Assembly (NCBI GenBank): GCA_964372665.1
Contig: CAYJRE010000003.1
Span: 1-57,702, forward strand
Direction of reading: 5' to 3'
Source of the DNA: an uncultured archaeon
Lineage (GTDB): Archaea > Iainarchaeota > Iainarchaeia > Iainarchaeales > VGJJ01
Length of the DNA: 57,702 nucleotides
Below the pieces are notes generated by a model. It was given only the letters and a program-made list of their open reading frames with translations. It did not search any database and was not told where the DNA came from. Below, one piece after another: positions 22,867 through 41,651 of the stretch (position 1 is the stretch's first letter; every line of letters begins with the position of its first letter). The position numbers and the translations under genes are program-made.

Positions 22867-22872
22867 TTTTTT

Positions 22873-24135: not shown

Positions 24136-25322
24136 GCCGAAACATCTCCTTTGGGAAAAGGTTGAGAGAGCGCTGGGGGATTGATTCCTAAATCGAGCTT
24201 CGAATCAATCAATCTCCGAGACTCGTGAAGAATGTGCGAGTGAAAAAACTGGTTCAACACGAACTCGAGGAAGCCATGGATGTAGAGGGCACGTGCCCCT
24301 TCCTCATCCAACCCGCGCGAAGCTAAATAAAACAATTTTTCTTTGTCCAAGCGACCAACCGTCGCCGCATGCGAGCAGCGCAAATCAGAGCCTTCTATTT
24401 CCAATGCGGGAACGGGGTCGGCTTCCGCGTTGGGGGAGAGAAGCAGTACGTCCGCGCGCTGATTCCCGACTGATCCACGAGCTTCCTTGGTCATCTTGAT
24501 GAGGCCTTTGTATACGGCCTTGGAGGAATCGTTCAACACCCCCCGCGCGAGCAAATGCGATTTGGTTTGAGGAAATAAATGCACGGCGGAAGCATCCATA
24601 TCGAAGTGCTGGGACTCGTTGCCCAAAAACAACCCCATGTTTCGCGTGGAAGCGTTTTCCCCCACGAGATTGGAAATGACGTCCAATTTGACCAATTTGG
24701 AGCCAAACTCGGACCAATACCAATCCACCGAAGCGTTTTTTTCGATGTGCGCGCGCTTGTATGCGAAACGGGAAAAGGAAAGAGGATTGTTTTGGATGCT
24801 TGAATAGGTTACGTGCGCGTTCTCGCAGGCGAAAATCTCGACTGCGGAACTTGAGAATGAATTTTTAGGTGAAGCAGAATGAGATTCCGTGTGAATGAGA
24901 GAGGCACGTGCATCCTTCTCGGCTAAAATGAGAACATGGGAAACAAAATCGTTCTGCGCAGGAAGAATGATGGGACCTTTTGCTTGAGCGTTGGGGGGGA
25001 GGTAAAGGAATATGCCATTTGAGACTAATGAAAGGTGCATGGCCTCAAACTTTTTCCCAAGCGAGAGAAGAGAACCAAAAATGGGGGCTATTTTTTCGGG
25101 ATACTTTTGAAATGCGGTTTCCAAATCGCAGAGTATGACTCCGTTTTCTAAGGATTGGAAAAAAGGGGCTTTTTTGTTGGAAAATTGTTGAGTGACTTCT
25201 TCCAGACGGATGGAAGAAACGTCCGTGTGAATATCCAACCCATATTTGAGAGAGGGATACGGCAATCGTTCGAAAGCGAAACGTGCTTCTTTATTCTTTT
25301 CAGACAAAAGGGTTTGGAGCAT
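24132..25322 (-). CDS. sufD: Fe-S cluster assembly protein SufD
   Basis: SufB/D beta-helix C-terminal pattern (ADVLLLSPNAEADPVPALEI...CSHAATVGRLD, LFYLASRGL). Position is between sufB and sufS. Confidence 0.8.
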   Translation of the reverse strand: MLQTLLSEKNKEARFAFERLPYPSLKYGLDIHTDVSSIRLEEVTQQFSNKKAPFFQSLENGVILCDLETAFQKYPEKIAPIFGSLLSLGKKFEAMHLSLVSNGIFLYLPPNAQAKGPIILPAQNDFVSHVLILAEKDARASLIHTESHSASPKNSFSSSAVEIFACENAHVTYSSIQNNPLSFSRFAYKRAHIEKNASVDWYWSEFGSKLVKLDVISNLVGENASTRNMGLFLGNESQHFDMDASAVHLFPQTKSHLLARGVLNDSSKAVYKGLIKMTKEARGSVGNQRADVLLLSPNAEADPVPALEIEGSDLRCSHAATVGRLDKEKLFYLASRGLDEEGARALYIHGFLEFVLNQFFHSHILHESRRLIDSKLDLGINPPALSQPFPKGDVSA

Positions 25323-25351
25323 AGCGGGAGTGTCACCTCAATGATATTATT

Positions 25352-27294: not shown

Positions 27295-29469
27295 CTACCT
27301 CAAATCCACCCGGCGGAGAAGAAGGGCATTCGTGACCACGGACACGGAAGAGAGGGCCATGGCCCCGCCCGCAACGATGGGGGAGAGCAACCAACCCGTA
27401 AAGGGATACAATACGCCGGCTGCGATAGGAATCCCAATCACATTATAGATGAGCGCCCAAAACATGCCCTGCTTGATTTTGTTCATCGTCGCCTTCCCGA
27501 GCTTCAGGGCGGCCACCACATCGTACGGATCGGAACGCATCAACACGACGTGGCCGGCTTCCATCGCAATGTCGGTTCCCTTTCCCATGGCGAAACCCAC
27601 ATTTGATTGGGCCAAAGCCGGTGCATCATTCACGCCGTCTCCAACGAAACCGACTTTCTTTCCTTGTACTTGCAACTTTTTCACATATTGAGCCTTTTTT
27701 TCCGGCAAAACTTCCGCGAAAACATGCGAAATGCCCAACTGTTTGGCAATCGCCTTCGCCGTGCGTTCATTATCCCCCGTAATCATCCACACATCAATGC
27801 GCTGATTTTGCAAATCATGCACGGCTCGTGTGGCAGTGGACTTTGGTTGGTCCGCGATCGCAATCATCGCAATAGGTTTTGATTGACGCGCCACAAATAC
27901 AACGGTTTTTCCTTCATGCTCGAGCTTTTCCATTTCGGATTCGAACGTTCGCACGTTCACTTTATTTGCGCGCATAAACGAGTGATTTCCAATCACATAC
28001 GACTTCCCTTTTACAAAACCATTCACCCCTTTCCCGAATTCCGCACGAAAACGAGAAACCGAAGCAGGTGGAATGCGCTTACCGGAAATATGCTGGACGA
28101 TGGCCTGGGCTAATGGGTGTTCGGACTTCTCCTCCAATCCCCGAATGGTGGACAACACTTCCCGCTCGTTTTCGGTTTGGGAAACAACCACATCGGTTAC
28201 TGCCGGTTTTCCTTGGGTAAGCGTCCCGGTCTTGTCAAAAATGATGGCATTCATTCCGTGCATTGTTTCCAACGCCTCCGCGCCCTTGATGAGAATCCCG
28301 TTCTCGGCCCCCTTCCCGGTGCCCACCATAATCGCGGTGGGTGTTGCCAGTCCCAGTGCACATGGACACGCAATCACAAGAACCGAAACCGCGGTCACCA
28401 ACGCAAAACCCGGCGCGGATTGAGCCAAAAACAACCACCCCGCAAACGTGAGAACCGCCAAAACGATAACCGCCGGGACAAATACCGCGGAAATCTGGTC
28501 CGCGAAACGCTCAATGTCGGCCTTGCTTCCCTGCGCCTCTTCCACCAGCTTCACGATGCGCGCGAGCACCGTATCCTTCCCCACTTTGGAAGCGCGAAAC
28601 GTAATGTTCCCATTCAAATTAATCGTGCCTCCAACGACCGTATCGTTTTTTCCCCGATCAACGGGCAAACTCTCCCCCGTAATCATGCTCTCATCCAACG
28701 AGGTCTCCCCCGAAACAATCACACCATCCACGGGAACACGCTCACCCGGTTTCACAACTAGCAAATCTCCCACTTGAACTTGTTCAATGGGAACATCCAC
28801 TACTTTTTTCCCTTTGAGCAAATGGGCTTTCTTGGGAGACAAATCCATGAGCTTGCGAATTGCCTCGCTCGTCTTGCCTTTGGCAATCGCCTCGAGGTAT
28901 TTACCCAAAACGACCAGCGTGATGATAATGGCCCCCACTTCGAAATATTGCTCCAACACTAAACCTACCACATGAGCCACGCTGTAGACGTAGGCTGCAC
29001 TCGTACCCAATGCAATGAGCGTGTCCATCGTGAACGTTCCCGAAAACAAGGCTGTCCACGCATCCCGGTAAAACCGCCAACCCACATAAAACTGCACGGG
29101 AGTTGCCAACAAGAAAAGAAGAAAAATGCGGTATGGAAACTCCATGAAAACCATTCCCAGCAACAGCGCAGGAAAACTCAACACGGCTCCAACAATGAGC
29201 ATTTTTTTCAATTCAGCAATCTCACTGGCTCGAACCTCTTTTTCGTGTTCAAGGGAAACATCAAATGTGGCTCCGTACCCTCTTTTTTTGACCGCCTCAA
29301 TTAACGCGTTCTCATTCGCCTGTTTTTCATCAAACTCCACATGCGCTTTCTGAACCGCATAATTCACATGCGCGGTTTTCACGCCCGAAACCTTCTCCAA
29401 CGACTTTTGGATTAACACGGCACAACTCGCGCAATGCATACCCTCAATCGCCAATTCCATTTTTCTCAT
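27295..29469 (-). CDS. copA: Copper-translocating P1B-type ATPase
   Basis: N-terminal HMA GMHCASC, TM CPC motif IACPCALG, DKTGTLT, TGDN, GDGVNDAP. Confidence 0.9.
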   Translation of the reverse strand: MRKMELAIEGMHCASCAVLIQKSLEKVSGVKTAHVNYAVQKAHVEFDEKQANENALIEAVKKRGYGATFDVSLEHEKEVRASEIAELKKMLIVGAVLSFPALLLGMVFMEFPYRIFLLFLLATPVQFYVGWRFYRDAWTALFSGTFTMDTLIALGTSAAYVYSVAHVVGLVLEQYFEVGAIIITLVVLGKYLEAIAKGKTSEAIRKLMDLSPKKAHLLKGKKVVDVPIEQVQVGDLLVVKPGERVPVDGVIVSGETSLDESMITGESLPVDRGKNDTVVGGTINLNGNITFRASKVGKDTVLARIVKLVEEAQGSKADIERFADQISAVFVPAVIVLAVLTFAGWLFLAQSAPGFALVTAVSVLVIACPCALGLATPTAIMVGTGKGAENGILIKGAEALETMHGMNAIIFDKTGTLTQGKPAVTDVVVSQTENEREVLSTIRGLEEKSEHPLAQAIVQHISGKRIPPASVSRFRAEFGKGVNGFVKGKSYVIGNHSFMRANKVNVRTFESEMEKLEHEGKTVVFVARQSKPIAMIAIADQPKSTATRAVHDLQNQRIDVWMITGDNERTAKAIAKQLGISHVFAEVLPEKKAQYVKKLQVQGKKVGFVGDGVNDAPALAQSNVGFAMGKGTDIAMEAGHVVLMRSDPYDVVAALKLGKATMNKIKQGMFWALIYNVIGIPIAAGVLYPFTGWLLSPIVAGGAMALSSVSVVTNALLLRRVDLR

Positions 29470-29485
29470 ACAATAGCCCCAATTA

Positions 29486-29683
29486 TTACTCTAAGGCGTA
29501 TCCTTCTTTTTCCACGGCCTTTTTGACGGCTGGCAGTTCACCTTCATTTTTCATATCCACTACTATTTCCCCTTTCTGGTGGTTAGCCGAAACTACTTTT
29601 GTTCCCGATTCTTCAATGGCCTCCGTCAATACTATCTCACAGCTATTACAGTGCATTCCCTTGATTTTCAATTTTTTTTTCAT
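29486..29683 (-). CDS. copZ: Heavy-metal-associated domain copper chaperone
   Basis: 65 aa, KIKGMHCNSCE (MxCxxC). Lies 16 nt upstream of copA. Confidence 0.8.
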   Translation of the reverse strand: MKKKLKIKGMHCNSCEIVLTEAIEESGTKVVSANHQKGEIVVDMKNEGELPAVKKAVEKEGYALE

Positions 29684-29778: not shown

Positions 29779-30525
29779 TCACTTTGTTTCTGATTGTATG
29801 GCAGCGATTCTGTATTTGGCTCTGATTAGATATTTTCTATCGCCTTGTTTTTGAATGGCGAAATTGTCTGCCTTTTCTTCCTCCCTGATAAACACGTTGG
29901 TTATTCCAGAAAAAGCAAAAAACGGAGAAATGGTTTTGAGTGAAACCCCCAGTAACTTCAATTTTGGCGTGTTATTTTGAATGTGATAAAGCTCATGCAA
30001 TATTACCGCTTCCAGTTCCTTAGGGGCCAATAGTTCAAGCAATCCAATGGAAAAAAACAGTTTTGGTTTCCAAGAAGTGGTGGAAAATGCGATTGGCTTT
30101 GATTCGTCGATGATAAAAATTTTTGGTGGGCCGATATTTTCTTTTTGGGACAGGTTGTTTATTTTTTCATATAATGGCCCGGAATTGACTTCTTTTGTTT
30201 TGAATAATCGTTGATATAGCATGGGAACAACAAAGTATCCAAGCAGTATTGTTCCCAAGATCGAAGCGGGAATCGCCAATAGAATTGTTGGAGATGCACA
30301 CATTTGGATGAAATGGCAGCCCCGTGAAAAAACGGCGGATACCAATGGAAAAGTTAGAGCGAATAGGTGGGTGTACATCCAAAATATTTTATGTTTGGCT
30401 TCTTTTTTTTTGACTCTCCAAAAGGAAATAATGGCTATTGCTGCAGAGAATAATATGGCGTAGACGCCTTGATTGGCTAATAAGGTGGGAATCCAAACAG
30501 CAGTAATGCATTCAAGTTGAAACAT
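29779..30525 (-). CDS. M56-family (BlaR1-like) membrane metalloprotease, short form
   Basis: Four or more TM segments, an HExxH motif (LHELYHIQNN), and a position immediately downstream of a BlaI-like repressor. Confidence 0.65.
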   Translation of the reverse strand: MFQLECITAVWIPTLLANQGVYAILFSAAIAIISFWRVKKKEAKHKIFWMYTHLFALTFPLVSAVFSRGCHFIQMCASPTILLAIPASILGTILLGYFVVPMLYQRLFKTKEVNSGPLYEKINNLSQKENIGPPKIFIIDESKPIAFSTTSWKPKLFFSIGLLELLAPKELEAVILHELYHIQNNTPKLKLLGVSLKTISPFFAFSGITNVFIREEEKADNFAIQKQGDRKYLIRAKYRIAAIQSETK

Positions 30526-30528
30526 GCG

Positions 30529-30894
30529 TTATTTTTCACCGAACCGTTCATTGAAATAAGCGACTGCCGTTGAACCAAATTTTTCAATCAGCTTGTTAAC
30601 GCTGTTCTCCACTAACTTTTTTTCAAAGTCCTTGCTGCTCTTTTTGAGCGAGTATATGTATCGGTAACCGCCACGACAACTTTCAATTTCTCGGTCAGTG
30701 GCTTTGGCTTTGTATAATCGGTCTAATAACACTGTGACGCTGGTGGGTGCCACGCGGTACCCTTTTTTGATTAAAATTTGGTGGATTTCCTTGGATCTTG
30801 CTTTCGTGTTATGGGATAGGGTTCCCAGAATTTCTCGCTCTAGCTCGTTTAGAGACTTTTGGAGTTCTGGCCGAATGAATTGCATTGTTTTCAT
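30529..30894 (-). CDS. BlaI/MecI/CopY-family transcriptional repressor
   Basis: LNELEREILGTLSHN...KEIHQIL...APTSVTVLLDRLYKAKATDREIE matches the penicillinase-repressor wHTH pattern. There is no C-terminal CxCxxxxCxC copper site. Confidence 0.7.
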   Translation of the reverse strand: MKTMQFIRPELQKSLNELEREILGTLSHNTKARSKEIHQILIKKGYRVAPTSVTVLLDRLYKAKATDREIESCRGGYRYIYSLKKSSKDFEKKLVENSVNKLIEKFGSTAVAYFNERFGEK

Positions 30895-31055
30895 CGTATT
30901 ACCTGGAAGGATACAGACGCTTCTAACATAAAAACCTTTATCCTAAAAAGAGTAAGCATTACACGAAATAGAAAGGCTTTTATATTGGTTATTATCTTGG
31001 TTAATACGTATACATTCTGGGTAATACTTATAAATCATGAGACTGGGTGTGGAGT

Positions 31056-32522
31056 ATGGACACGATTCGATATTGTGCGGTTTGCGGTAAAGAGACCAAA
31101 GACGATAAACTTTCGAGGTTTGGTGAATTCTTTTGCTCTCCAAAACACTTGGACGAGTTTGTAGAAGAAACCAAGAAGCAAAAATTGGGCCAATCCACCG
31201 ACCTAAATAGGGGCACAGAACCAGTTACCATTACAGCCAAAGACCCGGTTACCGTTGCAGGAAACGATTTTTTTTCTCTTTTGAATAATACGCGCGATAT
31301 TTTATTTAAAGAAAAATATGCCAAGATTTTTGCAGTTTCTTTTAGCGTATTGTTGATTGTGTTCGCTTTTTTGGGTGGCCTTTTTTACATCCCAGTCGTT
31401 GACATTGGATTTTTCCGAATGTCTGAGGTTACGCTGTTCGACTACGCGTTTATATTACTGTCGAGCGTGTTGAGCGCCATCCTATTGGCTTTGATATGGT
31501 TTAATCGCGACCAACAATTGCATCTCGGTAGAGCGGGAACTGCAAGCGCTGGACTGGCTGGTTTTATGGCGGCGGTTTGCCCAACGTGCCAAGCAGTTAA
31601 TTTTGTTGCTTTGGGTGCTACGGCCATTAGCATACCATTGGGGCCAATTATCCCATACTTGGGGGCGTTAAAGTTTTTCAGCTTGGGGTTGCTCGGGTTG
31701 GCAACGTATACTACCTCCAAAAGCATTTATTCCAAAACGTGTCCAACCACCGTCATTCCGTTAAACCAACCTCATAGGAAAGAATCAAAAGAAGAAAATT
31801 CGCCAATAGTGCAATTCTTTTTTGAAAACAACATGGGATTTTCATTGCTAACCGGTTTGATAGTAATCCTGCTCTTTAACCAAATCATGTTGATGTCTGT
31901 ATTTGCCAGCATGGTTCCAACCCCCGGAACAGCGGCTTCCATGATTGGAAAGGTGAGCATTCAAGGAAGCGAGTTAGCCTACGGTTCAAAAATTACACTT
32001 AAGCCGATGCCATTAGCTACGGAGGAACAACCAGTCATTGCAGGGTATAAAACAAAAGTAAAAGCACTTCCAACCATTAGCGAGATGACCATGGCGCCCA
32101 GTACCGGAGACACAGCACAAGACTTGGTCAACAACGTGGTGCCGCACGGAACGCCATCCTATGGACAAGAAGCGGGAGTGAGTTTTGATGACCCCATCCA
32201 GGCACAAAATGTTTGGGGAACTTATGAAGGAAGTATCCAGCTAAGCGCAGATATGCAAACGCGTTGGGGCAAGATTGTTAACGCTTTTACTTGTGATTAT
32301 TGTTGCGGCAGCCCACAAAATCCAACGATTATAACGCGATGCGGTTGCGCTCATGCCAAAGCGGCGAGAGGGATGGCGAAATGGTTCATCCAAAAATATG
32401 GATCCCAGTACTCCGATGAAGAGATTTATGGAGAAATGGCTCGATGGTATGCATTGTGGTATCCTGGACCAACGGTAAAGAGAATTGCAGAAGAACTGCA
32501 AGCAAACGGTGGAAGATTCTAA
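31056..32522 (+). CDS. Three-module fusion: TRASH-like zinc ribbon, polytopic membrane domain with intramembrane CPTC, and an extracytoplasmic CxYCCG...CGCAH domain (function unknown)
   Basis: N-terminus YCAVCGKET...FGEFFCSPKH. TM region with AAVCPTCQAV. C-terminus CDYCCGSPQNPTIITRCGCAHAKAARGMAKWFIQKYGSQYSDEEI. ATG 31056 follows GGTGTGGAG. Confidence 0.8.
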   Translation: MDTIRYCAVCGKETKDDKLSRFGEFFCSPKHLDEFVEETKKQKLGQSTDLNRGTEPVTITAKDPVTVAGNDFFSLLNNTRDILFKEKYAKIFAVSFSVLLIVFAFLGGLFYIPVVDIGFFRMSEVTLFDYAFILLSSVLSAILLALIWFNRDQQLHLGRAGTASAGLAGFMAAVCPTCQAVNFVALGATAISIPLGPIIPYLGALKFFSLGLLGLATYTTSKSIYSKTCPTTVIPLNQPHRKESKEENSPIVQFFFENNMGFSLLTGLIVILLFNQIMLMSVFASMVPTPGTAASMIGKVSIQGSELAYGSKITLKPMPLATEEQPVIAGYKTKVKALPTISEMTMAPSTGDTAQDLVNNVVPHGTPSYGQEAGVSFDDPIQAQNVWGTYEGSIQLSADMQTRWGKIVNAFTCDYCCGSPQNPTIITRCGCAHAKAARGMAKWFIQKYGSQYSDEEIYGEMARWYALWYPGPTVKRIAEELQANGGRF

Positions 32523-32550
32523 TCAAACAACAAAAAAGGAGGTGAAAACA

Positions 32551-32787
32551 ATGGAAAAAACAATTTTACTGGGATTGCTGCTTGGAGCCATGGTTTTGGT
32601 TTCAATGTTTCAAGCCATCCAAATCATGGGACTGAGTGAAATACTCTCGGGGTCTAATGGAATTGCAGGAACCAGCAGTAGCAGCGGTACCACCCCCACA
32701 CCAATAGCCGGCAGCCCAAGCACAACAAGCGCAAGCAGCAGCGGTTCGAGCTTGGACAACTTGCCTGCGATGGTTGGAGGGTGCTAA
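32551..32787 (+). CDS. Small TM-anchored Ser/Thr/Gly-rich protein ending in -MVGGC
   Basis: Strong RBS AAGGAGGTGA 6 nt before ATG 32551. MEKTILLGLLLGAMVLVSMFQAIQIMGL anchor, low-complexity linker, C-terminus LPAMVGGC-stop. Confidence 0.7.
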   Translation: MEKTILLGLLLGAMVLVSMFQAIQIMGLSEILSGSNGIAGTSSSSGTTPTPIAGSPSTTSASSSGSSLDNLPAMVGGC

Positions 32788-32901
32788 AAAAATCAACAAT
32801 AGTGGGGAGCAGTATATCGGACAATACCCAACCCGCTCCATTTGTTTCATGGTACCGGGCACAGCATACACTATACCATTTGGTGAAAAAATGGAAACGT
32901 A

Positions 32902-34101
32902 ATGAAAATAGAAACTATGGAGTGGAAAGAGATGTTTAACAAGGACAAGAATATCCTGTTTGTATCGCTCACGGTAGCGTTGGCTATATTGTTAGTGTTT
33001 AATGTAGTGCAAATTAGTGGCTTTTCCAAACTATTGGAGCAAAAGGCAGTTGAAAGGAAAGAACTCGCAAGACCGGCTCAGTTGGAAGTCATTACCTTAT
33101 TGGCAACCGGTTGTACTCAATGCTATTCAATGAAAAAAGAACTCGAGCAAATCACTAAACAAAATGTAAAAATTCAAGATCAAAAAACGATTGATTTTCA
33201 ATCCATAGAAGGAAAATCGCTAGTGGAAAAATACGGAATAAAGAAATTGCCCACCTTTATCATTCGAGGAGAAACAGTAAAAAATAATCAATTGGAAAAT
33301 TTTTGGAAAAAAACAGGTGGTGAAGTGACAGACGAAAACGAAGTAATACTACAATCTACGGCTGCCCCATACTTTGACATCGAGCTCAACAAAACAATAG
33401 GAGTGGTAAATATGATTCAGTTGAGCGCACGCGATTGCAATCAGTGTACTAGCATATCAAAAGTAATTGATGCACTAAAACAAAATGGCGTTGTTTTTGG
33501 TTCCGATGAAACGATTGATTATAGTGAACCCCGTTCGGTTGAAATTATCCAAAAGCATGGTGTTCAGCAAGTGCCAGCATTGCTTTTCTCAAAAGAAATT
33601 GAAGCATATCCGTCCATATTCCAGCAATTAAAGCAGTTAACTACTCAGGAAAAGGAAGGATACTACGCCCTTCATTCTACTAGCCCACCGTACTTGAACG
33701 CGGCTACTGGAAAAACAATAGGGTTAGTTGAATTAATTTTATTGAAGGATAGCAATTGCACAGAATGTTATGATGTGGCTCTCAATAAGACTATTCTTAC
33801 TCGATTCGGTGTCGTAGTATCTGATGAAATAGTATTGGAAGCCAGCTCTCCCGAAGGCAAAGTGTTAATCAATCAGTATCAAATTGAAAAGATTCCCATT
33901 ATTTTGATGTCACCTGACGCGAATGTTTACCCGCTGCTAAATAACGCTTGGCCTTCCGTCGGAAGTGTTGAAACCAACGGCTGGTTTATTATGCGCAGCC
34001 CCGAAGTTTTGGGAACGTATAGAGTCCTTTCGACGGGTCAAATCGTTAATCCTACCATTCCGCCAAATTCAACCGTCGGGGGAGGGGAATCTGGTTCATG
34101 A
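32902..34101 (+). CDS. Membrane-anchored protein with three thioredoxin-fold CxxC modules
   Basis: The TM anchor ends in FNVVQISGF. Three repeats each have a CxxC (CTQC, CNQC, CTEC), and each is followed ~45 aa later by a cis-Pro-like KLPTFII / QVPALLF / KIPIILM. Confidence 0.8.
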   Translation: MKIETMEWKEMFNKDKNILFVSLTVALAILLVFNVVQISGFSKLLEQKAVERKELARPAQLEVITLLATGCTQCYSMKKELEQITKQNVKIQDQKTIDFQSIEGKSLVEKYGIKKLPTFIIRGETVKNNQLENFWKKTGGEVTDENEVILQSTAAPYFDIELNKTIGVVNMIQLSARDCNQCTSISKVIDALKQNGVVFGSDETIDYSEPRSVEIIQKHGVQQVPALLFSKEIEAYPSIFQQLKQLTTQEKEGYYALHSTSPPYLNAATGKTIGLVELILLKDSNCTECYDVALNKTILTRFGVVVSDEIVLEASSPEGKVLINQYQIEKIPIILMSPDANVYPLLNNAWPSVGSVETNGWFIMRSPEVLGTYRVLSTGQIVNPTIPPNSTVGGGESGS

Positions 34102-34856
34102 TTTCAAAAAGCGCTTTGTTCTTTTCACTGGCATTAATGGTGGGAACTGTTTTCTTGTTTATGCTAACGGCCACCCATAATCAGAGAATCGCTTCAGGTG
34201 CAGCGGTTGCCACTAATACAACGGATTCGCTTGCGCAATCAAGTAGTAGCCGGATGGGGCTAACTTCTTTTGACAAAAAATTAGCCATTCAATTAATGGA
34301 CAAAGACGGGGACGGAAAGTGTGATTCTTGCGGAATGGGTGTTGAATTGTGCATGGATTCTGGCCAATTACAGTGCAACATGGGCCCCGATTCTACTATC
34401 GGGGTTTTGGGTTCCCAACACGTTCACTCGGATTGGAAAATTTATTTGAAAGGGAAAGCATTAGGTTCAGCGTTTTTTGAACCGCTAGCAATGAACATGT
34501 CTAATCCCAACAAGAGCACGACAAGCAGTTTTATTCATGTAGACCGGGGAGCACCGGCCCCAGAAAAAACAGGAGACGTGTTGCACATGCATGCAAGCGG
34601 TGTTCCATTGTGGATTTTTTTTGAAAGTGTGGGAATGAAATTGAGCAAAGAGTGCCTTGAACTACGTGAGGGAGAGAAGTATTGCAATGATAGCAATAAT
34701 ACATTGAAATTTTTTGTGAACGGAAAACCAAGCAGCGCTTTGGAGGAGTACGTGTTCCAAGATAATGACAAAATCCTTATCTCGTATGGCAATGAGACGG
34801 ATGTAGAAATTCAAAACCAGTTAAATTCGATTACTGGCTTCTCTAAAAATCATTGA
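34098..34856 (+). CDS. TM-anchored Cys/His-rich extracytoplasmic protein (paralog of 36311..36943)
   Basis: The ATGA overlap gives translational coupling. CDSCGMGVELCMDSGQLQC, then QHVHSD...VLHMHASG...FFVNGKPS...DNDKILISYG, alignable with the 36311 product. Confidence 0.75.
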   Translation: MISKSALFFSLALMVGTVFLFMLTATHNQRIASGAAVATNTTDSLAQSSSSRMGLTSFDKKLAIQLMDKDGDGKCDSCGMGVELCMDSGQLQCNMGPDSTIGVLGSQHVHSDWKIYLKGKALGSAFFEPLAMNMSNPNKSTTSSFIHVDRGAPAPEKTGDVLHMHASGVPLWIFFESVGMKLSKECLELREGEKYCNDSNNTLKFFVNGKPSSALEEYVFQDNDKILISYGNETDVEIQNQLNSITGFSKNH

Positions 34857-34941
34857 AGCAGGAATAATCCGCATGAATGCTAAAAATATGTTATTTACAT
34901 TAACCATTAAGGGTTTGTTTTGAACGACGGGGTGATCTTTT

Positions 34942-35385
34942 ATGAATGAAGACACGAATACAAGAGGAAAAACAGCCAGCGCTGCTGGAACCATTTCGAG
35001 CGGGGCAAGCCTTTTGAGTGGATACCAGGTATGCCATAACGTGTGCATGGGACTCATCGGGTTATTGTCCATCGTGGGAATAACGCTTGTTGGAATGCCC
35101 CTCGCTTTCTTATTACCATACTCGATTCCATTTTGGATAATAGGCGCGCTATTGTTATTGGTAACGGCCGCATGGTACGTTCAAAAACCGCACTGTGTTC
35201 CAAAACACTTAGTGTTGTTCAATGCAGGAATACTCATTGCAGCGATTCCGTTCAAAGAATTACAAAAACTTCAACTCGTTTTTTGGATTACTGGAGGCAT
35301 GATAATTGCTTTCGCAATATATGGCTACTGGACGAAAAGACAACGCTTTAAAAAAGTAAATTCTGAAATTGTTGGCAGTAAATGA
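34942..35385 (+). CDS. Four-TM membrane protein with CHNVC in TM1
   Basis: AAGTISSGASLLSGYQVCHNVCMGLIGLL. RBS GGGGTGA. Confidence 0.7.
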   Translation: MNEDTNTRGKTASAAGTISSGASLLSGYQVCHNVCMGLIGLLSIVGITLVGMPLAFLLPYSIPFWIIGALLLLVTAAWYVQKPHCVPKHLVLFNAGILIAAIPFKELQKLQLVFWITGGMIIAFAIYGYWTKRQRFKKVNSEIVGSK

Positions 35386-35468
35386 AAGCTTCCAATTCGA
35401 ATGTTTCCCCACCAGAAAGCGCTACTACCTGAGACATTTCGGCAGTTCTAAGACCTTTGATATCCCTA

Positions 35469-35573
35469 TCAATGGAACGGGGGCTTTCCTGTGTCTATAC
35501 GTTTTGCTGCGACACAACCGATTGCGAAAATTATCCCGATGAGTAACAGAATCAGCATCACACTTTTCTTCAT
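35469..35573 (-). CDS. 34-aa lipoprotein-like micro-ORF coupled to the upstream membrane-protein gene
   Basis: MKKSVMLILLLIGIIFAIGCVAAKRIDTGKPPFH. Its ATG overlaps the TGA of gene 35570..36085 (ATGA). Lipobox-like AIGC. It is below the ORF-track size cutoff. Confidence 0.3.
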   Translation of the reverse strand: MKKSVMLILLLIGIIFAIGCVAAKRIDTGKPPFH

Positions 35574-36085
35574 TTTATTTTACCTCGTGAAGATAGAAAT
35601 TTGGATTGCTCATACACAGCATACGACAAGAGAATTACGCTCATTACACCAAGCACTGGCTGCAAAGGCATAAAGTACGCTACCACGCCTGTCACGCCCA
35701 AAAGAAGTATTAGCACTTTATTGCATATCGCACACCCAAAGGAAAATAAACCGCCTACCGCCCCACCCGTTGCTACATAGTTGCAAATTGTTTGCGTCTT
35801 TCTAGTATAATACCACAACCCCACGTAAGTTCCTGAGAGTATCGAAGTCAGAACGAGGAATACATAATCATAATTGTATACCGGTGTCATTCTGACGAAA
35901 ATATCATTTGGCAGGAGCACGGTAATAATACCGAATGCTGAAAAGATTGCCAAGGCAGTCGCACTGCCCACGATTATTGAACGAGTGTTTAGTTTTTCCC
36001 GTTTATGATTTCCCCACATAGTTCCCCGTGATTTTTTATTCCAAGACTCGAAATACTTCCTTGTAACTTCTTTTGGTAAAGGCAT
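35570..36085 (-). CDS. Polytopic membrane protein with intramembrane CAIC (paralog of the membrane module of 31056..32522)
   Basis: FVRMTPVYNYDYVFLVLTSILSG...FSFGCAICNKVLILLLG...PLQPVLG aligns with FRMSEVTLFDYAFILLSSVLSA...AAVCPTCQAVNFVALG...PLGPIIP. Confidence 0.75.
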   Translation of the reverse strand: MPLPKEVTRKYFESWNKKSRGTMWGNHKREKLNTRSIIVGSATALAIFSAFGIITVLLPNDIFVRMTPVYNYDYVFLVLTSILSGTYVGLWYYTRKTQTICNYVATGGAVGGLFSFGCAICNKVLILLLGVTGVVAYFMPLQPVLGVMSVILLSYAVYEQSKFLSSRGKIK

Positions 36086-36138
36086 ATCGTATGTTTATTT
36101 TATTGATTTTTGGATGCGAGGATTACCCCGACCCAGTA

Positions 36139-36265
36139 GCGCGACACTCCCACGCCTAAAGGCGTGGGCTTCTGTTGAAATGGCGTTGGAGAAGCGCGAT
36201 TATAAACGGCTACGCCTTTACTCTTGCCTGAAAGGCAGGGGCTTCGGGCGAGGGAGTGTCAGTGA
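36139..36265. repeat. Long copy of the MITE-like or structured repeat (ends gacactccc/gggagtgtc, two CC-T(G)AAA-GG hairpins)
   Basis: gcgcgacactccc + hairpin cccacgcc-taaa-ggcgtggg + ~52-nt spacer + hairpin ctcttgcc-tgaaa-ggcagggg + cttcgggcgagggagtgtcagtga. The ends and the second hairpin match 10023..10076. Confidence 0.5.
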
Positions 36266-36310
36266 AAAAACAACACGGACTTGCTTATTCACTTAAAGGA
36301 AACAATATTC

Positions 36311-36943
36311 TCACGCGGAATCCCCCCCAGGCTCCATTCGAATCGTATATTTGTCTCCATCGCGGATAACCCGATTATCAAATTCGGTGTTTTCCTGGCC
36401 ATTCACTAAAAAAGTCATGACCGCCGGTGCGCCATTGGGGCAATTCTCCCCCACTTTCTTTCCATTAAACTCATTTTGAGTAAATGTTATTCCAATTCGG
36501 CGCATGAACTTTCCTACGGTTATTTGGTCGGGGGCGGTTGCATTCCCTTCGAGATGAATGCGTTGATCCCCATGCGTGTGCAATAAGTGGTCAACAATTG
36601 GCGCATTCGGCATGATGAAGGGTTCCCCACAAACACTACCATCCACATCCGCATGCCAGTGAACATTTCCAGTTGGAAACGACAATCCAACGGTATTGTA
36701 AGGAGTAGTGGGTGAATCGTTTTTGGGATTGAATACCCCGACGGCGAATGCGGAGGCCAATATCCCCAAAACGAGAACAATAAGGATTGGAATTTTCATT
36801 TTCTTAAAAAAGGAAAATCTTTCTGTTTCAACGGGTTTGGTTTCCGAGTGCTTGGCCTTCCGATGCATTAATAGTGCGTCCGCGTTCGAGAATGTTCTTT
36901 GGCAATGGTCGCACCGACTCTCTCCTTCGCTCATTTCACTCAT
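36311..36943 (-). CDS. C2H2 zinc finger, TM anchor and His-rich extracytoplasmic domain protein (paralog of 34098..34856)
   Basis: CDHCQRTFSNADALLMHRKAKH (C-x2-C-x12-H-x4-H), a TM segment, then VHWHADVDG...LLHTHGDQRIHLEG...FLVNGQEN...DGDKYTIRM. Confidence 0.75.
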   Translation of the reverse strand: MSEMSEGESRCDHCQRTFSNADALLMHRKAKHSETKPVETERFSFFKKMKIPILIVLVLGILASAFAVGVFNPKNDSPTTPYNTVGLSFPTGNVHWHADVDGSVCGEPFIMPNAPIVDHLLHTHGDQRIHLEGNATAPDQITVGKFMRRIGITFTQNEFNGKKVGENCPNGAPAVMTFLVNGQENTEFDNRVIRDGDKYTIRMEPGGDSA

Positions 36944-37156
36944 GCTGAAAGGCCACCAAATAGTTCAATGCAAAAACAAGCAAGACGATGCTATAAGCCG
37001 CTATGTTATATTCTAGCTGGTTATTAACCTTTTCCCAAAAGTACACGCCAAAAGTCCGATCTTCTCGTTTCCATCGGCGACCTGCTCAGTTCTTCTTTAA
37101 TACTATCCCATCAAGAGGGCTCTATTGAAAGTCTTTGTTTTTAAACCCCGGCAGGT

Positions 37157-37438
37157 TTGAGTCCTGCCGGGTTGGGAGAAACCATTCGAGGTGGTTCCCC
37201 CGTGAATGAAGCTAAGATTATTCGTAAAATTAAGCGTTTGCTTCGGCGAGCAAACGCTCCGCGTTATCTGCATCATTTTGGTCCCAAAAAGTACAAGTTT
37301 TGGCAACACGTTTTAGCGTTGTTCGTGAAACAAGAATGTAAACTCTCGTTCCGAAGAGTCGTTTCGCTCCTGCGTGGATTTGGATTTAACGTTCCAAGTT
37401 ATTCCGCGCTTGCAAAAATGACCTCCTCCGTGGCCTAA
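37157..37438 (+). pseudogene. N-terminal fragment of an IS4/IS5-like (DDE) transposase
   Basis: KKYKFWQHVLALFVKQECKLSFRRVVSLL...NVPSYSALAKM resembles the N-terminal HTH region of IS5-type transposases (FTxHQLLALLLLK...YR..VELL...VPHFSTL). The ORF stops after 93 aa and no DDE part follows. Confidence 0.45.
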
Positions 37439-37569
37439 AGGCCACGGTATTCAATTGGGCATGAACGACACTTGCTCGCGTGCTCGCTCGCCAAACAATG
37501 GGCGACGAATGTCGCCCTAAAGGGCGAGGTATCAGACCTTTTTGATCGAACTTTTTTCTAAAAAGTTCG
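37428..37569 (+). repeat. Cluster of GC-rich hairpins, two with CC-TAAA-GG apex
   Basis: ccgtggcc-taaa-ggccacgg (37428-37447). gggcgac-gaat-gtcgccc (37500-37517) overlaps tcgccc-taaa-gggcga (37512-37527). cgaactttt-N5-aaaagttcg (37547-37569). Confidence 0.45.
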
Positions 37570-37681
37570 AATGAATCTGGTGGTGCTCAATGCGGAGTTG
37601 CGACCCGGAATCCCTACGCTCGCTTTTCAATCCGAAATGGCGATGCCGTCGAATGGGAATCCCGAACGACAGAAATAGGAA

Positions 37682-38572
37682 TCAAACCGAGGAATCCATT
37701 TCCCACCTAAATATGCGATCCACGCCCCCCACGTTTTGGAGTACCAATGTGACTATGGCCATTTTCGACGGAATCGAATCGAACCGGAGTATGCCACTCC
37801 GGTGATGGCCGCCCAGTGCGCTGCCATCCCACGATACCGGAAAATATTTTTTACCCCGCTCATCCATGACATACGCTATTTTTTGGACGGAAAAATCCAA
37901 TTCGGTCTGATGCGTGTCAAACGCAATCTTGAACGCGATATGCGAATTAGAAAGAATGGGGGTCGCTTTCACCTCGACCCCGTTCTGAGAGCTCGTTTGA
38001 GTGGAGAGCAAAACGGCATCCGGCGAACCTACTGCCAAGGTTTGAGGAAGAAACCACGTGAAGGCGGCCAAGGCCGTTATACCAATCGCGCCCAAAACTG
38101 CCACCGTGTTCCGGATTTCCGCCCACGGCCATCCTTCCGCGAACGGAAAAGGAAAAACGCGGTGCCGTTGTAACAGGGAAAGCATGAGGGTTATCCCCAC
38201 CACACTTGAAACGATTCCTAGAACCATGAAGAAGGACTGGTACTCACTGAAAAACAAAAAAACGCCCGACAGCCCCAGAAAGGGGAGAATGTCCGTGACG
38301 TGGTGCAAACAACACGCAATCATGGTTCCTGCTGAAGTCCCTCCAGTGGCGGCCATCTGAGCGGAAGAGACGCGGTTCGCAAGTTCGGTGCGTCCATAAA
38401 AAAACAACCCCATTTGGGTGGCAAAACCAGCGGCCAACAGCAAGATGAGGAAACCGTATTCGCGAATCTGTTCCGCGACATGCGAGGGGCCGTTGAAAAC
38501 GAACGTGATGCCCCCATAAAGGAGCAACAATAATAATCCAGAAATAATCCCATAATAGGTTTCTTTGCGCAT
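37682..38572 (-). CDS. Polytopic membrane protein with vicinal-Cys ACCLHH motif plus a C-terminal beta-rich domain (GGHHRSG)
   Basis: ATGGTSAGTMIACCLHHVTDILPFLGLSG within a TM segment. The C-terminal ~110 aa are soluble (AFDTHQTELDF...WDGSALGGHHRSGILRF). ATG 38572 follows GGAGTGA. Confidence 0.75.
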   Translation of the reverse strand: MRKETYYGIISGLLLLLLYGGITFVFNGPSHVAEQIREYGFLILLLAAGFATQMGLFFYGRTELANRVSSAQMAATGGTSAGTMIACCLHHVTDILPFLGLSGVFLFFSEYQSFFMVLGIVSSVVGITLMLSLLQRHRVFPFPFAEGWPWAEIRNTVAVLGAIGITALAAFTWFLPQTLAVGSPDAVLLSTQTSSQNGVEVKATPILSNSHIAFKIAFDTHQTELDFSVQKIAYVMDERGKKYFPVSWDGSALGGHHRSGILRFDSIPSKMAIVTLVLQNVGGVDRIFRWEMDSSV

Positions 38573-38582
38573 ATGGTTTTTT

Positions 38583-39137
38583 TCACTCCTTACAGCAATC
38601 CACGAGCTTCTTGATGGTTTCCACAATTCCAACACTTGGATTTGAGCCCCGAAACAACCCTGGATTATTCTTTTTCACTTTTTCTGAAACACTGCCCTTT
38701 TCCTGCAACGGCAAATCAAGGGCTAGACCCATGAATAGGGAATACACCTCGAATCCACGAGAAAAATAGTTGGCCGCCTCACTCTCGTTTCCTGAATCCA
38801 ACTCTTTCGTGCCGACTTCCAACAATCGCATGGAAGCGGCCAGCAGGTGCTTGGAAATACACCACTCTTCCGCGGAAGGATTCCGTATGAGCTTTTTCAT
38901 GAACTCCTTCCGTATTTCTCGGATGGTGGAAAGCATGGTCAGGTATTTCTCATCGAATGTTTTGGCGAACGAAAACGCTAAATGCTCCTCCAGTGAAATA
39001 AGATTCATCAACCCGATGCTCAAGTCGGCATCCTTCGACAAATCCGCTTGCGAGAAAGAAAACTTTTTGACATCGTTAATCCAATCATCCGAAACGGGGG
39101 CGTTTTTTGCCCATTTCTTTTCGTTTTGATTTGTCAT
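38583..39137 (-). CDS. Cytoplasmic helical hypothetical protein ending in -VDCCKE
   Basis: 184 aa with no TM segment and a vicinal Cys pair four residues from the C-terminus. Its start abuts the stop of the upstream gene. Confidence 0.7.
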   Translation of the reverse strand: MTNQNEKKWAKNAPVSDDWINDVKKFSFSQADLSKDADLSIGLMNLISLEEHLAFSFAKTFDEKYLTMLSTIREIRKEFMKKLIRNPSAEEWCISKHLLAASMRLLEVGTKELDSGNESEAANYFSRGFEVYSLFMGLALDLPLQEKGSVSEKVKKNNPGLFRGSNPSVGIVETIKKLVDCCKE

Positions 39138-39668
39138 TCAAAGGCCCCCCGCCATAAACAACAGGCTCGTGATGACCAATAGACCCAAAGTGAGCCAAAT
39201 GCCCTGGAACGGAACCAAAACTCGGCCGTGTTTTCGCTTCATCCATTCGTGCATTTGTAATGCGAAAAGGGATACCAATGCGCCCACCAAGCCTCCTGCC
39301 AAAAAGAAGGAAGGGAAGTATGCCTGGTTCAACAGGCCTCCACTCTGCCCCAGCCAAAAGATGGGCAAATAAAACATATCACGGCTCAACGCCTGCAATG
39401 GAATGATCGTGAGCAACCATGAACCGCCAATCAGCAATGGCGTTTGCAATGGAACTTTTTTCCCCAGCTTGCGGGAAAACCATATCCCTGTGCTCACCGC
39501 AAACGCGCCCACGAACAATCCGACGATGCTATCGCTCAACCCGAATGCTCGTGCGCCGAGAATTCCAACCCCGATAGCTGCTGTACAGAGGGGACAATGG
39601 GCGTGCACGACAGCAGCACTACCAAAAATCCCACCTAACACCGCTAGCCAACGACCCATTTTCTGCAT
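39138..39668 (-). CDS. Polytopic membrane protein with HAHCPLC motif in TM1
   Basis: MQKMGRWLAVLGGIFGSAAVVHAHCPLCTAAIGVGILG. RBS GGGTGGGGGA 7 nt upstream of ATG 39668. Confidence 0.7.
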   Translation of the reverse strand: MQKMGRWLAVLGGIFGSAAVVHAHCPLCTAAIGVGILGARAFGLSDSIVGLFVGAFAVSTGIWFSRKLGKKVPLQTPLLIGGSWLLTIIPLQALSRDMFYLPIFWLGQSGGLLNQAYFPSFFLAGGLVGALVSLFALQMHEWMKRKHGRVLVPFQGIWLTLGLLVITSLLFMAGGL

Positions 39669-39700: not shown

Positions 39701-40102
39701 TCAACACCCGCCTACCATCTGGGAACCGCCCGAAGAAGGGGCAGACTGGACTTGATCGGGGTGCATGCGCGCCATCATCTCCCCATAGGTTTCGCCCGCT
39801 TCACCGGCGCGGGCATCGGCACTGGCCCCCGCCAAGGAAACGCTTCCCGTAATGGGAGAATAGGCTTTCTGCAGGGCTCCAATCTGAAAGGCTTGCACGA
39901 CATTGAGCACCAATAACATGCCCACACCCGCGAGCAACGCATAATGTTTCCAATTCGCTTGAGAATCATGCGTATGCTCCGCAGGCGCATTCCGCGATTT
40001 TTCCTCACAGTGTTCGCACGGCATACTAGCAACACCCCCTGTCGTGATTGTGTCCTTGTTTCTTCGAATCTTTTTTATCAGATCGACTTTTTTCTGTTTC
40101 AT
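39701..40102 (-). CDS. Cys/His N-tail, TM anchor, tail ending in -MVGGC
   Basis: MPCEHCEEKSRNAPAEHTHD (cytoplasmic), anchor LLVLNVVQAFQIGAL, Ala/Gly/Ser-rich linker, C-terminus GGSQMVGGC-stop. Confidence 0.7.
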   Translation of the reverse strand: MKQKKVDLIKKIRRNKDTITTGGVASMPCEHCEEKSRNAPAEHTHDSQANWKHYALLAGVGMLLVLNVVQAFQIGALQKAYSPITGSVSLAGASADARAGEAGETYGEMMARMHPDQVQSAPSSGGSQMVGGC

Positions 40103-40203: not shown

Positions 40204-40914
40204 CTAACACCCTCCCACCATGTTTCCACCGCTCGAACTTTTTTGCTTCTCGATTCCGCGGTAAAGATTCGAGGCCAAATTGACATAATTGAACTCGATC
40301 CCGTTGTCCTCGAGCGCTTTCGCCTTCTGCGCTAGCGCGGAAGGAAAAAATAGGGTTTTCCATTTTCCGAGCTCATCCAAAATCTGCTCGTCTGAAAACT
40401 CGCTTCCGTGCTGGGTGATCAGATATTTTGCCAGGCCTCGCATGGCATAACTGTGCGCACACCCGCAAGCGGGGTTTCCTTCTGCATCTGTAATTGCAGG
40501 AGCCCCACAGCAATATTCGCAGCTTATGGAATTGGTTATTTTAATGTAGCGCGACAAGTCATCCCCTTCCAAGGTTATGCTCTGATCCAACGCTGCCAAT
40601 TTTCGAATCGTCGCATCGGCCAACTGGGCGTTTTTCGCCGAAACATCATCGAATGAAACACTCAATTCAGTTCCATACACGAGCGGAATGCCTTTGGGCA
40701 ATACCTTTTCCACATCTAATGCGACTTTGTTTTCCTCCGATTTGACAAGATTTCCAGTGTCCACCAGAGTATTTTGTGCTGCGCTCAATCCAGAATTACT
40801 TACAGAAATGGGCAGGGTGGTTAATCCAGTCATGTTCCACGCGTTGACGAGCGTCAGAATGAGAGCGACTCCCATCAGCCCAAGCGTGACACCGTAAATA
40901 GTTGCAATTTTCAT
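40204..40914 (-). CDS. TM-anchored CxYCCG...CGCAH domain protein ending in -MVGGC
   Basis: Strong RBS GAAGGAGGT. Anchor ALILTLVNAWNMTGL. CEYCCGAPAITDAEGNPACGCAHSYAMRGLAKYLITQHGSEFSDEQI. C-terminus SSSGGNMVGGC-stop. Confidence 0.8.
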   Translation of the reverse strand: MKIATIYGVTLGLMGVALILTLVNAWNMTGLTTLPISVSNSGLSAAQNTLVDTGNLVKSEENKVALDVEKVLPKGIPLVYGTELSVSFDDVSAKNAQLADATIRKLAALDQSITLEGDDLSRYIKITNSISCEYCCGAPAITDAEGNPACGCAHSYAMRGLAKYLITQHGSEFSDEQILDELGKWKTLFFPSALAQKAKALEDNGIEFNYVNLASNLYRGIEKQKSSSGGNMVGGC

Positions 40915-41028: not shown

Positions 41029-41526
41029 TTAGACCAACACGACGAGGTTGGTCATGCCTCTCCGCTTGCGTTCGATGATTCTCTCATGCTCCATCTTGTC
41101 CAATATCCGAGAAATACGGACCTTGGAATAACCGGTTTCCCTCACCAAATCGGATTGGAACAAGGAGCCTTGACGCTGGACGAGCAACCCATAAATTTTT
41201 TGGGATTCTTCATCCAGCGAGGAAACATCAATGGGGACGATGGCCTTACGTGTTTCTCCCTTTGCTGGTATTTCAACGAAACCGAAATAGACGCCGATCA
41301 GAATGATAACAAAGGATAGCCCGAATCCTGCGACAAAGAACCACGAGGTGTCCGTCTTGTGGACGGGGCACGATAGCATGTCCCCCCCGCTCGCCTCGAT
41401 GTTCTCGCATAAAAAAGCGGCTTGGGCATCATACTGGATTTTCACGAAACCCAAAACCAACGATAACACTAATCCGATGATGATGAGGACGTAGCCGATT
41501 TGCTTTTTTTCCAAGGAAAGGGGCAT
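41029..41526 (-). CDS. Membrane-tethered winged-helix transcriptional regulator with Cys/His extracytoplasmic loop
   Basis: Two TM segments flank FLCENIEASGGDMLSCPVHKTD. The C-terminal LFQSDLVRETGYSKVRISRILDKMEHERIIERKRRG is MarR/ArsR-like wHTH. It is the first gene of the - strand operon. Confidence 0.7.
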   Translation of the reverse strand: MPLSLEKKQIGYVLIIIGLVLSLVLGFVKIQYDAQAAFLCENIEASGGDMLSCPVHKTDTSWFFVAGFGLSFVIILIGVYFGFVEIPAKGETRKAIVPIDVSSLDEESQKIYGLLVQRQGSLFQSDLVRETGYSKVRISRILDKMEHERIIERKRRGMTNLVVLV

Positions 41527-41651
41527 AGTATAGTATGTTCCAAGGCATTCAATAAAAAAGGCACCTTTTGAAGAGCCGCCCATATATCCTTTTCGATACT
41601 ATCCATTTTTAGACTCGAAAAACGATGTAACTGCCAGAGAGGTGATCCGCT

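Follow-up and report, generated by a model that had tools for sequence, protein, structure and literature searches.

A conserved island of cysteine-rich membrane and envelope proteins in an uncultured Iainarchaeales archaeon, with a MerT-like hairpin and a possible role in soft-metal handling

The DNA analyzed here (the window) is a stretch of 57,702 nucleotides from an uncultured archaeon of the Iainarchaeales (contig CAYJRE010000003.1). Between the CopA and CopZ genes (27295-29683, minus strand) and an aldehyde dehydrogenase gene (41999 onward) it contains about 16 genes, almost none of which has a curated family. We give about an even chance to the reading that these genes form the core of a conserved island for handling soft metals, whose membrane and exoplasmic proteins would relay Cu(I)-type metals by exchange between thiolate and His ligands. 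Cu(I) would most likely be the metal, and Ag(I) or Hg(II) are also possible. This reading builds on the homology of a Cys-bearing membrane hairpin to the mercury transporter MerT, the invariance of the Cys motifs, the gene order, and the metal-related genes nearby. The closest named homologs of the window proteins belong to Aenigmarchaeota, the 'DPANN group', and metagenome-assembled genomes of Iainarchaeum/Pacearchaeota. The genes are labeled A to Q, from CopA (27295) through the regulator Q (41583), and TM stands for transmembrane:

27295..29469, minus strand, A: CopA-type P1B ATPase flanking the island, with N-terminal GMHCASC and CPC in a TM helix
29486..29683, minus strand, B: CopZ-like HMA metallochaperone (MHCNSC in the translation), with homologs in loci L003 and L008
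29779..30525, minus strand, C: BlaR1-like M48/M56 membrane metalloprotease (Pfam PF01435, 6.3e-7; PF05569, 1.4e-5)
30529..30894, minus strand, D: BlaI-like (Penicillinase_R) repressor, divergent from E (Pfam PF03965, 2.8e-8)
31047..32522, plus strand, E: three-part membrane protein (zinc-ribbon-like N-terminus, MerT-like 4-TM module, exoplasmic Cys domain)
32551..32787, plus strand, F: small bitopic protein, a TM helix and a Ser/Thr-rich linker, C-terminus LPAMVGGC
32902..34101, plus strand, G: membrane-anchored protein with three thioredoxin-like repeats, CxxC in each (Pfam Thioredoxin, 2.2e-8)
34098..34856, plus strand, H: membrane-anchored exoplasmic protein, a Cys-rich stretch and a K-like domain, with a homolog in locus L001
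34942..35385, plus strand, I: 4-TM protein, C31-H32-x-x-C35 in TM1 and C85 past TM2
35570..36085, minus strand, J: 4-TM MerT-like module (C118-A-I-C121-N-K)
36311..36943, minus strand, K: cytoplasmic C2H2 zinc finger, one TM helix, and exoplasmic H-like domain
37682..38572, minus strand, L: 5-TM protein, M84..C87-C88-x-H90 in TM3, and exoplasmic beta-sandwich (DUF5643, GGHHRSG)
38583..39137, minus strand, M: soluble helical protein, presumably cytoplasmic, C-terminus VDCCKE
39138..39668, minus strand, N: membrane protein, A-H-C-P-L-C right after a signal-peptide-like N-terminus
39701..40102, minus strand, O: bitopic protein, cytoplasmic CEHC, one TM helix, Met/His-rich exoplasmic linker (MMARMHPDQ), MVGGC end
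40204..40914, minus strand, P: membrane-anchored exoplasmic 5-Cys/1-His domain (CEYCCG...CGCAH), MVGGC end
41029..41583, minus strand, Q: 2-TM DUF7343/MarR-type winged helix-turn-helix regulator, exoplasmic loop C59...C72-P-V-H (Pfam DUF7343, 1.4e-12)

An earlier sequence-only reading of this DNA had quoted peptides from five of these proteins (E, I, J, L, and N), all of which were found in the respective open reading frames (ORFs) at the coordinates given there, and had taken the five for one family of membrane modules with Cys pairs in their helices. Only E and J proved clearly related. By sequence comparison the E membrane module and J are true paralogs, as that reading had claimed (BLASTP, 32% identity over 109 amino acids, E = 2e-13). 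A profile search of 1.84 billion representative proteins, clustered at 50% identity, gave 911 clusters of the J family with E-values of 1e-3 or lower, 470 of them at 1e-10 or lower, including high-G+C bacterial sequences on contigs that look actinobacterial. The family has no name in any source, and no Pfam or NCBIfam model covers its members. C118 and C121 are invariant in 132 aligned sequences, with no other invariant Cys besides this pair, and R65 is invariant within a conserved outer loop (IPNxxFxRMTPxxxxDY). The motif reads CPxC in 105 of 123 members, and C-P-x-C-N-K in most. A third Cys lies about 45 residues downstream, just past TM4, in 63 of the 123. It is absent in the J protein of the window; the E module, which has four TM helices and C178-P-T-C181, carries C232 in the same loop past TM4, 51 residues after C181.

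The Cys hairpin of this family was compared with an alignment of four annotated merTP genes from Bacteroidota plasmids and the MerT-HMA gene of locus L001, where the latter lies directly upstream of a J ortholog. The J family matched this MerTP alignment with an hhalign probability of 95.5% (E = 1.4e-8, 64 columns), residues 101-166 of J falling on MerT 5-72 and the CxxC on the CC of MerT; the hairpin of E/J alone gave 96.7% (E = 3.6e-10). Pfam MerT matches below threshold were found in 35 of the 132 J-family members (best E 3.8e-5), while the next family was hit by 8. The matches stay under the curated PF02411 threshold of 32.9 bits: E, J, and L of the window had none, and the family member P0128 scored 22.6 bits (E 1.2e-4). 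On the strength of these profile alignments, the CPxC hairpin of E/J is homologous to TM1-TM2 of MerT. Because the scores are below threshold, the module has four TM helices, the motif is CPxC rather than CC, and the mer context is missing, E/J stand outside Pfam MerT, yet by the same comparison they are a new variant of Mer-type transporters that shares the hairpin.

As in MerT (PF02411, NF033556), the Cys pair of E/J sits in the first helix of the hairpin, with an LG-x-(S/T)-G turn and then (E/P)-x-x-P. The single third Cys seen past TM4 in about half of the family is cytoplasmic and falls where MerT has its cytoplasmic Cys, which in MerT is part of a second pair. Partner proteins of the island also bear Cys pairs on both sides of the membrane, another likeness to the MerT system. 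MerT consists of three TM helices (PMC3466566). Its hairpin is N-terminal, whereas in the four-helix E/J module it forms TM3-TM4, preceded by two helices and the outer loop; E/J have CPxC-N-K where MerT has vicinal Cys. MerC, MerF, and MerE are related Hg transporters of two to four helices, and in MerC the Cys pair is a CxxC as in E/J. Unlike in mer operons, no MerR, MerP, or MerA gene was found around E/J, and the neighbors are CopA, CopZ, and Suf genes.

Hydropathy and charge distribution indicate that the J module would have both termini in the cytoplasm, with TM1 crossing from in to out, the conserved loop outside, TM2 leading back, TM3 with its Cys pair again running from in to out, and TM4 last. 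This agrees with the extra TM5 in E and in the family member P0164, which is needed to put their C-terminal domains outside. The true start of J is probably M23, because its homologs measure 147-151 amino acids. The AlphaFold2 model of J from the 132-sequence alignment (predicted local distance difference test, pLDDT, 81; predicted TM-score, pTM, 0.71) has a helix at 103-116, a break at 117-122 (G-C-A-I-C-N), and a helix that resumes beyond it; therefore TM3 is modeled as discontinuous, with the CxxC at its middle. The fold search with this model found no solved structure alike (none at E below 0.001; TM-score below 0.35). Sequence searches of the PDB with profiles of the J and L families and with K, P, and M as single sequences gave nothing relevant.

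The other two parts of E also carry Cys. Its cytoplasmic N-terminus has a zinc-ribbon-like CxxC...CxxxH, and its C-terminal part consists of TM5 followed by an exoplasmic domain of five Cys and one His (CDYCCG...CGCAH). In locus L001 the E homolog is divided into two genes. Assignment of the N-terminal CxxC...CxxxH to TRASH/YHS was rejected, as it is a pattern only, without a model match, and is missing from the E homologs of L001 and L005. In P0164 the J-family module is fused to an exoplasmic thioredoxin-like (Thioredox_DsbH) domain. P0139, a J module with a CDF C-terminal domain, was set aside, since the match includes the last CDF TM helix and the ORF may be chimeric or frameshifted.

It was L that the sequence-only reading had likened to MerT. 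This comparison failed (L vs MerTP, hhalign probability 2.3%; the hairpin 20.6% and misregistered), so at the depth of these alignments L was set aside as a direct MerT relative; the MerT signal belongs to E/J. L may nevertheless be remotely related to J, as its profile aligned with that of J at 47-49% probability (E about 2e-4), collinear across four helices and with Cys motif on Cys motif. M84, C87, C88, and H90 are invariant in the 24 aligned sequences of the L family (30 proteins), which has the C-terminal DUF5643 beta-sandwich, and M..CC.H[HY] is kept in 14 of 17 further homologs from metagenomic loci. In the model of L (pLDDT 86), which shows five TM helices, the CC is in the outer half of TM3, a region at pLDDT 54-61. 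The fold search with this model returned matches to the beta-sandwich only, which superposes on the copper-resistance protein CrdA of H. pylori (Foldseek probability 1.0, TM-score about 0.5) and also on DUF4426 and YjhA. Bacterial homologs of L carry an N-terminal HMA/CopZ-like domain. One L-family member, P0084, is fused to an ICMT/PEMT-type (isoprenylcysteine carboxyl methyltransferase-like) membrane methyltransferase, a single case that is intriguing given the C-terminal Cys tails described below.

I and N had no relation to J, L, or MerTP in profile comparisons (MerTP vs I 7-10%, vs N 0.1%) or to any Pfam model, and as far as these comparisons reach each is a separate orphan family restricted to DPANN archaea. 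The I family comprises 21 proteins, all of DPANN-type origin. C31, H32, C35, and C85 are invariant in 22 aligned sequences, and all 16 further homologs have CH..C. CHNVC is near the beginning of TM1 and C85 in a positively charged loop past TM2, an arrangement that would bring the His and the three Cys together close to the inner face. In the N family AHCPLC is invariant in 6 sequences, and HCP[LI]C occurs in 33 of 35 further homologs. In most of these 33 a hydrophobic N-terminus closes with [V/A/T]-x-A just before the motif, which resembles a signal-peptidase site; after cleavage the mature protein would begin, on the exoplasmic side, with His-Cys-Pro-Leu-Cys. The motif is therefore probably exoplasmic rather than intramembrane. 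In cleaved N, the N-terminal His beside the Cys pair could be a candidate amino-terminal metal site.

The sequence-only reading overlooked the system around these proteins: the Cys-rich domain of P and E, the tails in MVGGC, protein M, and the conservation of the operons. P and the C-terminus of E share a paralogous domain (BLASTP, 1e-30) with invariant C-x-(Y/F)-C-C-G ... C-G-C-x-H, and 77 of 80 homologs have the full motif. The possibility that it is PCYCGC (PF13798) was discarded, as there was no such match in the Pfam scans. In the window, MVGGC C-termini are encoded at 32770-32787 (F, plus strand), 39701-39718 (O, minus strand), and 40204-40221 (P, minus strand). The ending (L/M)Px-M-V-G-G-C-stop occurs on otherwise unrelated exported or bitopic proteins, also in loci L001, L004, L005, L008, L009, and L017-L096. 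In 80 metagenomic loci, which were recovered via the P domain (at least 555 P relatives were found), G[GS]C terminates 167 complete ORFs, nearly always as MVGGC; 75 of these are P homologs and 92 small bitopic proteins. Common to the small tail proteins is a TM helix that closes with Q-x-(F/Y)-Q-(I/L). Their cytoplasmic N-termini frequently contain CC or CxxC or are rich in His, and their outer linkers are frequently rich in Met and His. E has no tail and is followed by a tail protein (F), while in locus L005 a 507-amino-acid E-like protein bears its own.

The M gene sits between the genes for the membrane proteins N and L. M has no TM helix; 19 of 21 homologs end in DCC[KRS]E, and a WC(I/V)SKHLL motif is conserved. 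No Pfam or PDB relatives of M were found. In Bacteroidota plasmids, genes annotated as 'GDCCVxC domain-containing (seleno)protein' follow merTP (L011, 3609-3818; L012, L013, and L014). The L011 protein ends in ...SRSCC and is a small cytoplasmic Cys-tail partner analogous, not homologous, to M. No relatives have been described for L, I, N, M, the domain of P, or the MVGGC tail, and literature searches on MVGGC, DPANN and copper, and PCYCGC found no description of such a system.

These genes are arranged in two modules. In module 1, D and C are divergent from E-F-G-H-I, with J and K nearby; module 2 is Q-P-O-N-M-L. The order that recurs in the metagenomic loci starts with Q and P, continues with one or two small tail proteins, N, and M, and closes with L and/or I, and therefore L and I share the terminal operon slot; G or CopA often come after it. 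Q heads the P-O-N-M-L operon in many related loci. Genes for Cu-type P1B ATPases or HMA proteins are found no more than 10 kb away, both in the window and in L001-L004, L008, L009, L016, and L099; A matched the HMA/E1-E2 ATPase genes of L001, L004, and L009 (BLASTP), and L006 has YHS and HMA-domain genes. In L001 module 1 genes are interleaved with the MerT-HMA gene, a multicopper oxidase gene, and a thioredoxin-cupredoxin fusion, and MerTP, multicopper oxidase, and cupredoxin genes adjoin the system in L001 and L004. In bacteria whose composition resembles that of actinobacteria, the genes for a J homolog, a BlaI-like repressor, and an M48 protease are grouped as one co-directional unit (L015, 8001-9906; L097, 4286-6492). 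The stop and start codons of this unit overlap in L015, where it lies beside DsbA-like and CcdA genes, and in L097 DUF305 and DUF6153 genes come after it. UbiE-type S-adenosylmethionine-dependent methyltransferase genes are immediately upstream of J-family genes in L003 (9348-10423) and L016 (6303-8576), and in L003 the methyltransferase stop overlaps the J start.

Our results indicate that the observation of Cys pairs in this region is real and non-random, though described in part wrongly, and that its interpretation in the sequence-only reading is partly supported. The excess over background claimed there was confirmed by a crude hydropathy scan, in which 4 of 12 island membrane ORFs had Cys pairs at TM segments against 0 of 18 outside; the scan overlooked L, which would give 5, and the CPC motif of CopA. 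Cys content is 1.8% within the island vs 1.08% outside. Every Cys motif was invariant or nearly so among orthologs, and no unrelated transporter family claimed the five proteins. When every island protein was scanned with Pfam and NCBIfam, the models recognized were limited to thioredoxin (G), C2H2 (K), M48/BlaI (C, D), and DUF7343 (Q). The idea that Cys pairs within helices are the working parts agrees with this invariance and with the mid-TM3 position of the CxxC in the J model; it does not extend to N, whose HCPLC probably lies outside the membrane. The proposed likeness to known Cys-pair systems holds for the MerT hairpin in E/J, but no model of CcdA/DsbD, DsbB, or VKOR was matched.

In the proposed soft-metal relay, a metal ion would be passed from site to site by thiolate ligand exchange, much as Hg(II) is handed over stepwise between Cys pairs from MerP to MerT to MerA. 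The exoplasmic sites would be the 5-Cys/His domains (P and the E C-terminus), the MVGGC tails of F, O, and P, the HCPLC of N, and the beta-sandwich of L. Those at mid-membrane would be the CPxC of the E/J hairpin, the CC-x-H of L, and CHxxC with C85 in I, and the cytoplasmic ones the DCCKE tail of M, C232 and the zinc ribbon of E, and the CxxC of O. Transfer could run either as import towards M or as export or sequestration towards P and the tails. E-F-G-H-I would be controlled by the BlaI/BlaR1-like regulators, and Q-P-O-N-M-L would be headed by the membrane-bound regulator Q. A more far-reaching version is possible, although we lean somewhat against it: Q-P-tails-N-M-(L/I), E-F-G-H-I, and J would together encode an undescribed multi-protein transmembrane thiolate relay, abundant in DPANN archaea of groundwater, in which the extreme C-terminal (L/M)PxMVGGC of exported proteins is a swinging carrier arm. 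The arm would dock on the new 5-Cys/1-His domain and on the mid-membrane Cys/His proteins, and the cytoplasmic DCCKE-tail protein would be the inner acceptor or donor.

A thiol-disulfide (electron) relay would account for many of the same features. The membrane Cys proteins would then act like CcdA/DsbD or DsbB/VKOR, linking the cytoplasm (M) with exoplasmic Cys-rich clients, namely G with its three thioredoxin repeats, the P/E domain, and the MVGGC tails, which would be kept redox-correct under copper or oxidative stress. CPxC in 105 of the 123 E/J members fits such a role, as do the DsbD-like architectures in which the module is joined to the exoplasmic Cys-rich domain (E) or to Thioredox_DsbH (P0164), the triple thioredoxin-like G in the operon of E, the DsbA-like and redoxin genes that adjoin J homologs, and a DsbA-like gene in the window, though no CcdA, DsbD, VKOR, or DsbB was found there. 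The likeness to CcdA/DsbD lies in membrane Cys coupled to exoplasmic thioredoxin-like or Cys-rich domains; G and the P0164 fusion count here as context and fall short of proof of electron transfer. However, CcdA has six TM helices in two inverted repeats with one essential Cys each, whereas E/J have four helices, and E/J, L, and I (four to five) carry both Cys in one helix. None of the five families gave a DsbD_TM, VKOR, or DsbB sequence signal: DsbD_TM (PF02683, PF13386) was not among the matches listed at E up to 1 for 132 J, 24 L, 22 I, and 6 N members (the top 25 families for J and L), and the five proteins had no VKOR/DsbB match. The sole significant homology is to MerT, and in the actinobacterial loci a genuine CcdA gene lies beside the J homolog, so that J is no CcdA replacement there. 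An invariant His stands beside nearly every invariant Cys motif (H90 in L; H32 in I; H24 with C25 and C28 in N; H154 with C150 and C152 in P), joined in L by Met (M84), and vicinal CC, as in L and M, fits metal binding better than disulfide exchange. We regard the disulfide relay as unlikely and prefer the metal relay because of these adjacent His/Met residues, the vicinal CC of L and M, the HMA domains on bacterial L homologs, the copper-related neighborhood, and the lack of similarity to CcdA, VKOR, or DsbB.

The genes beside E and J also suggest a sensory function, in which the E/J module would be the signal-receiving partner of the BlaR1-like M48 protease and the BlaI-like repressor, detecting membrane metal or thiol stress and transporting nothing itself. 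The protease C has no extracellular sensor domain (its C70-H72-C76, aligned with homologs, lies close to a TM helix), E is divergent from D-C in the window and has the same neighborhood in L001 and L099, and the three genes are a single co-directional unit in L015 and L097. The same arrangement is expected, however, if J/E is the regulated effector, like blaZ or mecA beside their regulators. Since J homologs also occur without BlaI/BlaR1 (L003, L016, L098) and the L/I/N/M/P system would be left unexplained, a sensor role appears improbable. We give still less credence to a sulfur carrier, in which the (M)VGGC tails would be a SoxY-like swinging arm for covalent persulfide or thiosulfonate between exoplasmic Cys-rich enzymes. 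SoxY intermediates ride on a Cys of such an arm (PMC5336275), and a C-terminal Gly-Gly-Cys on a flexible linker of an exported protein, seen in the 167 ORFs of the 80 loci, recalls it superficially. The island tails terminate with the Cys itself, and a conserved Met-Val belongs to their motif, whereas the carrier arm of SoxY has the motif GGCGG. F, O, and P have no SoxY/SoxZ Pfam match and no match to a SoxY-type fold; the loci examined contain no Sox, rhodanese, DsrE, or other sulfur-enzyme genes, and the neighborhood is consistently metal-related. A sulfur carrier is thus very improbable.

The soft-metal relay has to be weighed against several results of its own. Mer transporters bring Hg(II) into the cytoplasm, where MerA reduces it (PMC3466566); the window has no MerP and no MerA-type sink (redox motif), so a Mer-like import would be without its usual driving step. 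The Pfam and NCBIfam scans found no curated metal-binding domain in E, I, J, L, M, N, or P of the window. CPxC is also the classic motif of thiol-disulfide oxidoreductases, thioredoxin-like proteins (G), DsbA-like genes, and CcdA are frequent neighbors, and one J-family member carries a fused exoplasmic thioredoxin-like domain. Finally, the Cys region of L is modeled at low confidence, and its link to J is only about 48% probable. Similar to CopA/CopZ efflux with exoplasmic copper proteins such as CrdA, the island adjoins CopA/CopZ, has Met/His/Cys ligand sets, and includes the CrdA-like sandwich of L. Unlike known copper chaperones, its proteins show no sequence homology to them, and the L match is to a generic immunoglobulin-like sandwich, shared with DUF4426 and YjhA.

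Other features of the island and its surroundings were also recorded. H and K are paralogous (BLASTP, 3e-7), and their exoplasmic domain, which belongs to no known family, has His-rich motifs (HVHSD; HWHAD...HTHGD). The cytoplasmic C2H2 zinc finger of K is unusual in an archaeal membrane protein. In L001 the homolog of G is joined to a cupredoxin. The exoplasmic loop of Q contains a conserved Cys pair (C...CP), and Q has a VKOR match at chance level (E 0.05); a second membrane-associated DUF7343/MarR-type winged helix-turn-helix protein is encoded at 18970-19851 (plus strand). The BlaI/CopY-type operator TACAnnTGTA had zero matches in the window. The sequencing runs that contain the region are all DNA metagenomes. 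At 30000-36000 G+C is 0.41-0.43, against 0.46-0.52 in the flanks, and judging from this dip module 1 may have been acquired laterally. A Suf iron-sulfur assembly cluster (SufC, SufS-like, SufD, and SufB; 21696-26803, minus strand) lies directly upstream of CopA, as it does in L004. A membrane-anchored DsbA-like protein is encoded at 48064-48900 and a tRNA-Phe at 52130-52203, both on the minus strand.

The island represents a conserved, abundant, and uncharacterized envelope system of DPANN archaea that is built on Cys and His, and with it comes a large MerT-like family that has so far gone unannotated. This E/J family takes the MerT-type hairpin into copper and redox contexts. If the swinging-arm relay is true, metal (or sulfur) would be trafficked by machinery of a new class, with MerT as a distant, simplified relative. 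The MVGGC motif, the 5-Cys/His domain, and the DCCKE protein offer handles on how soft metals or reducing power may pass across the membrane without ATP. The presence of two parallel operons despite tiny DPANN genomes, and of the numerous P relatives in groundwater metagenomes, suggests that this system is an important and unstudied part of the envelope and metal biology of DPANN archaea.

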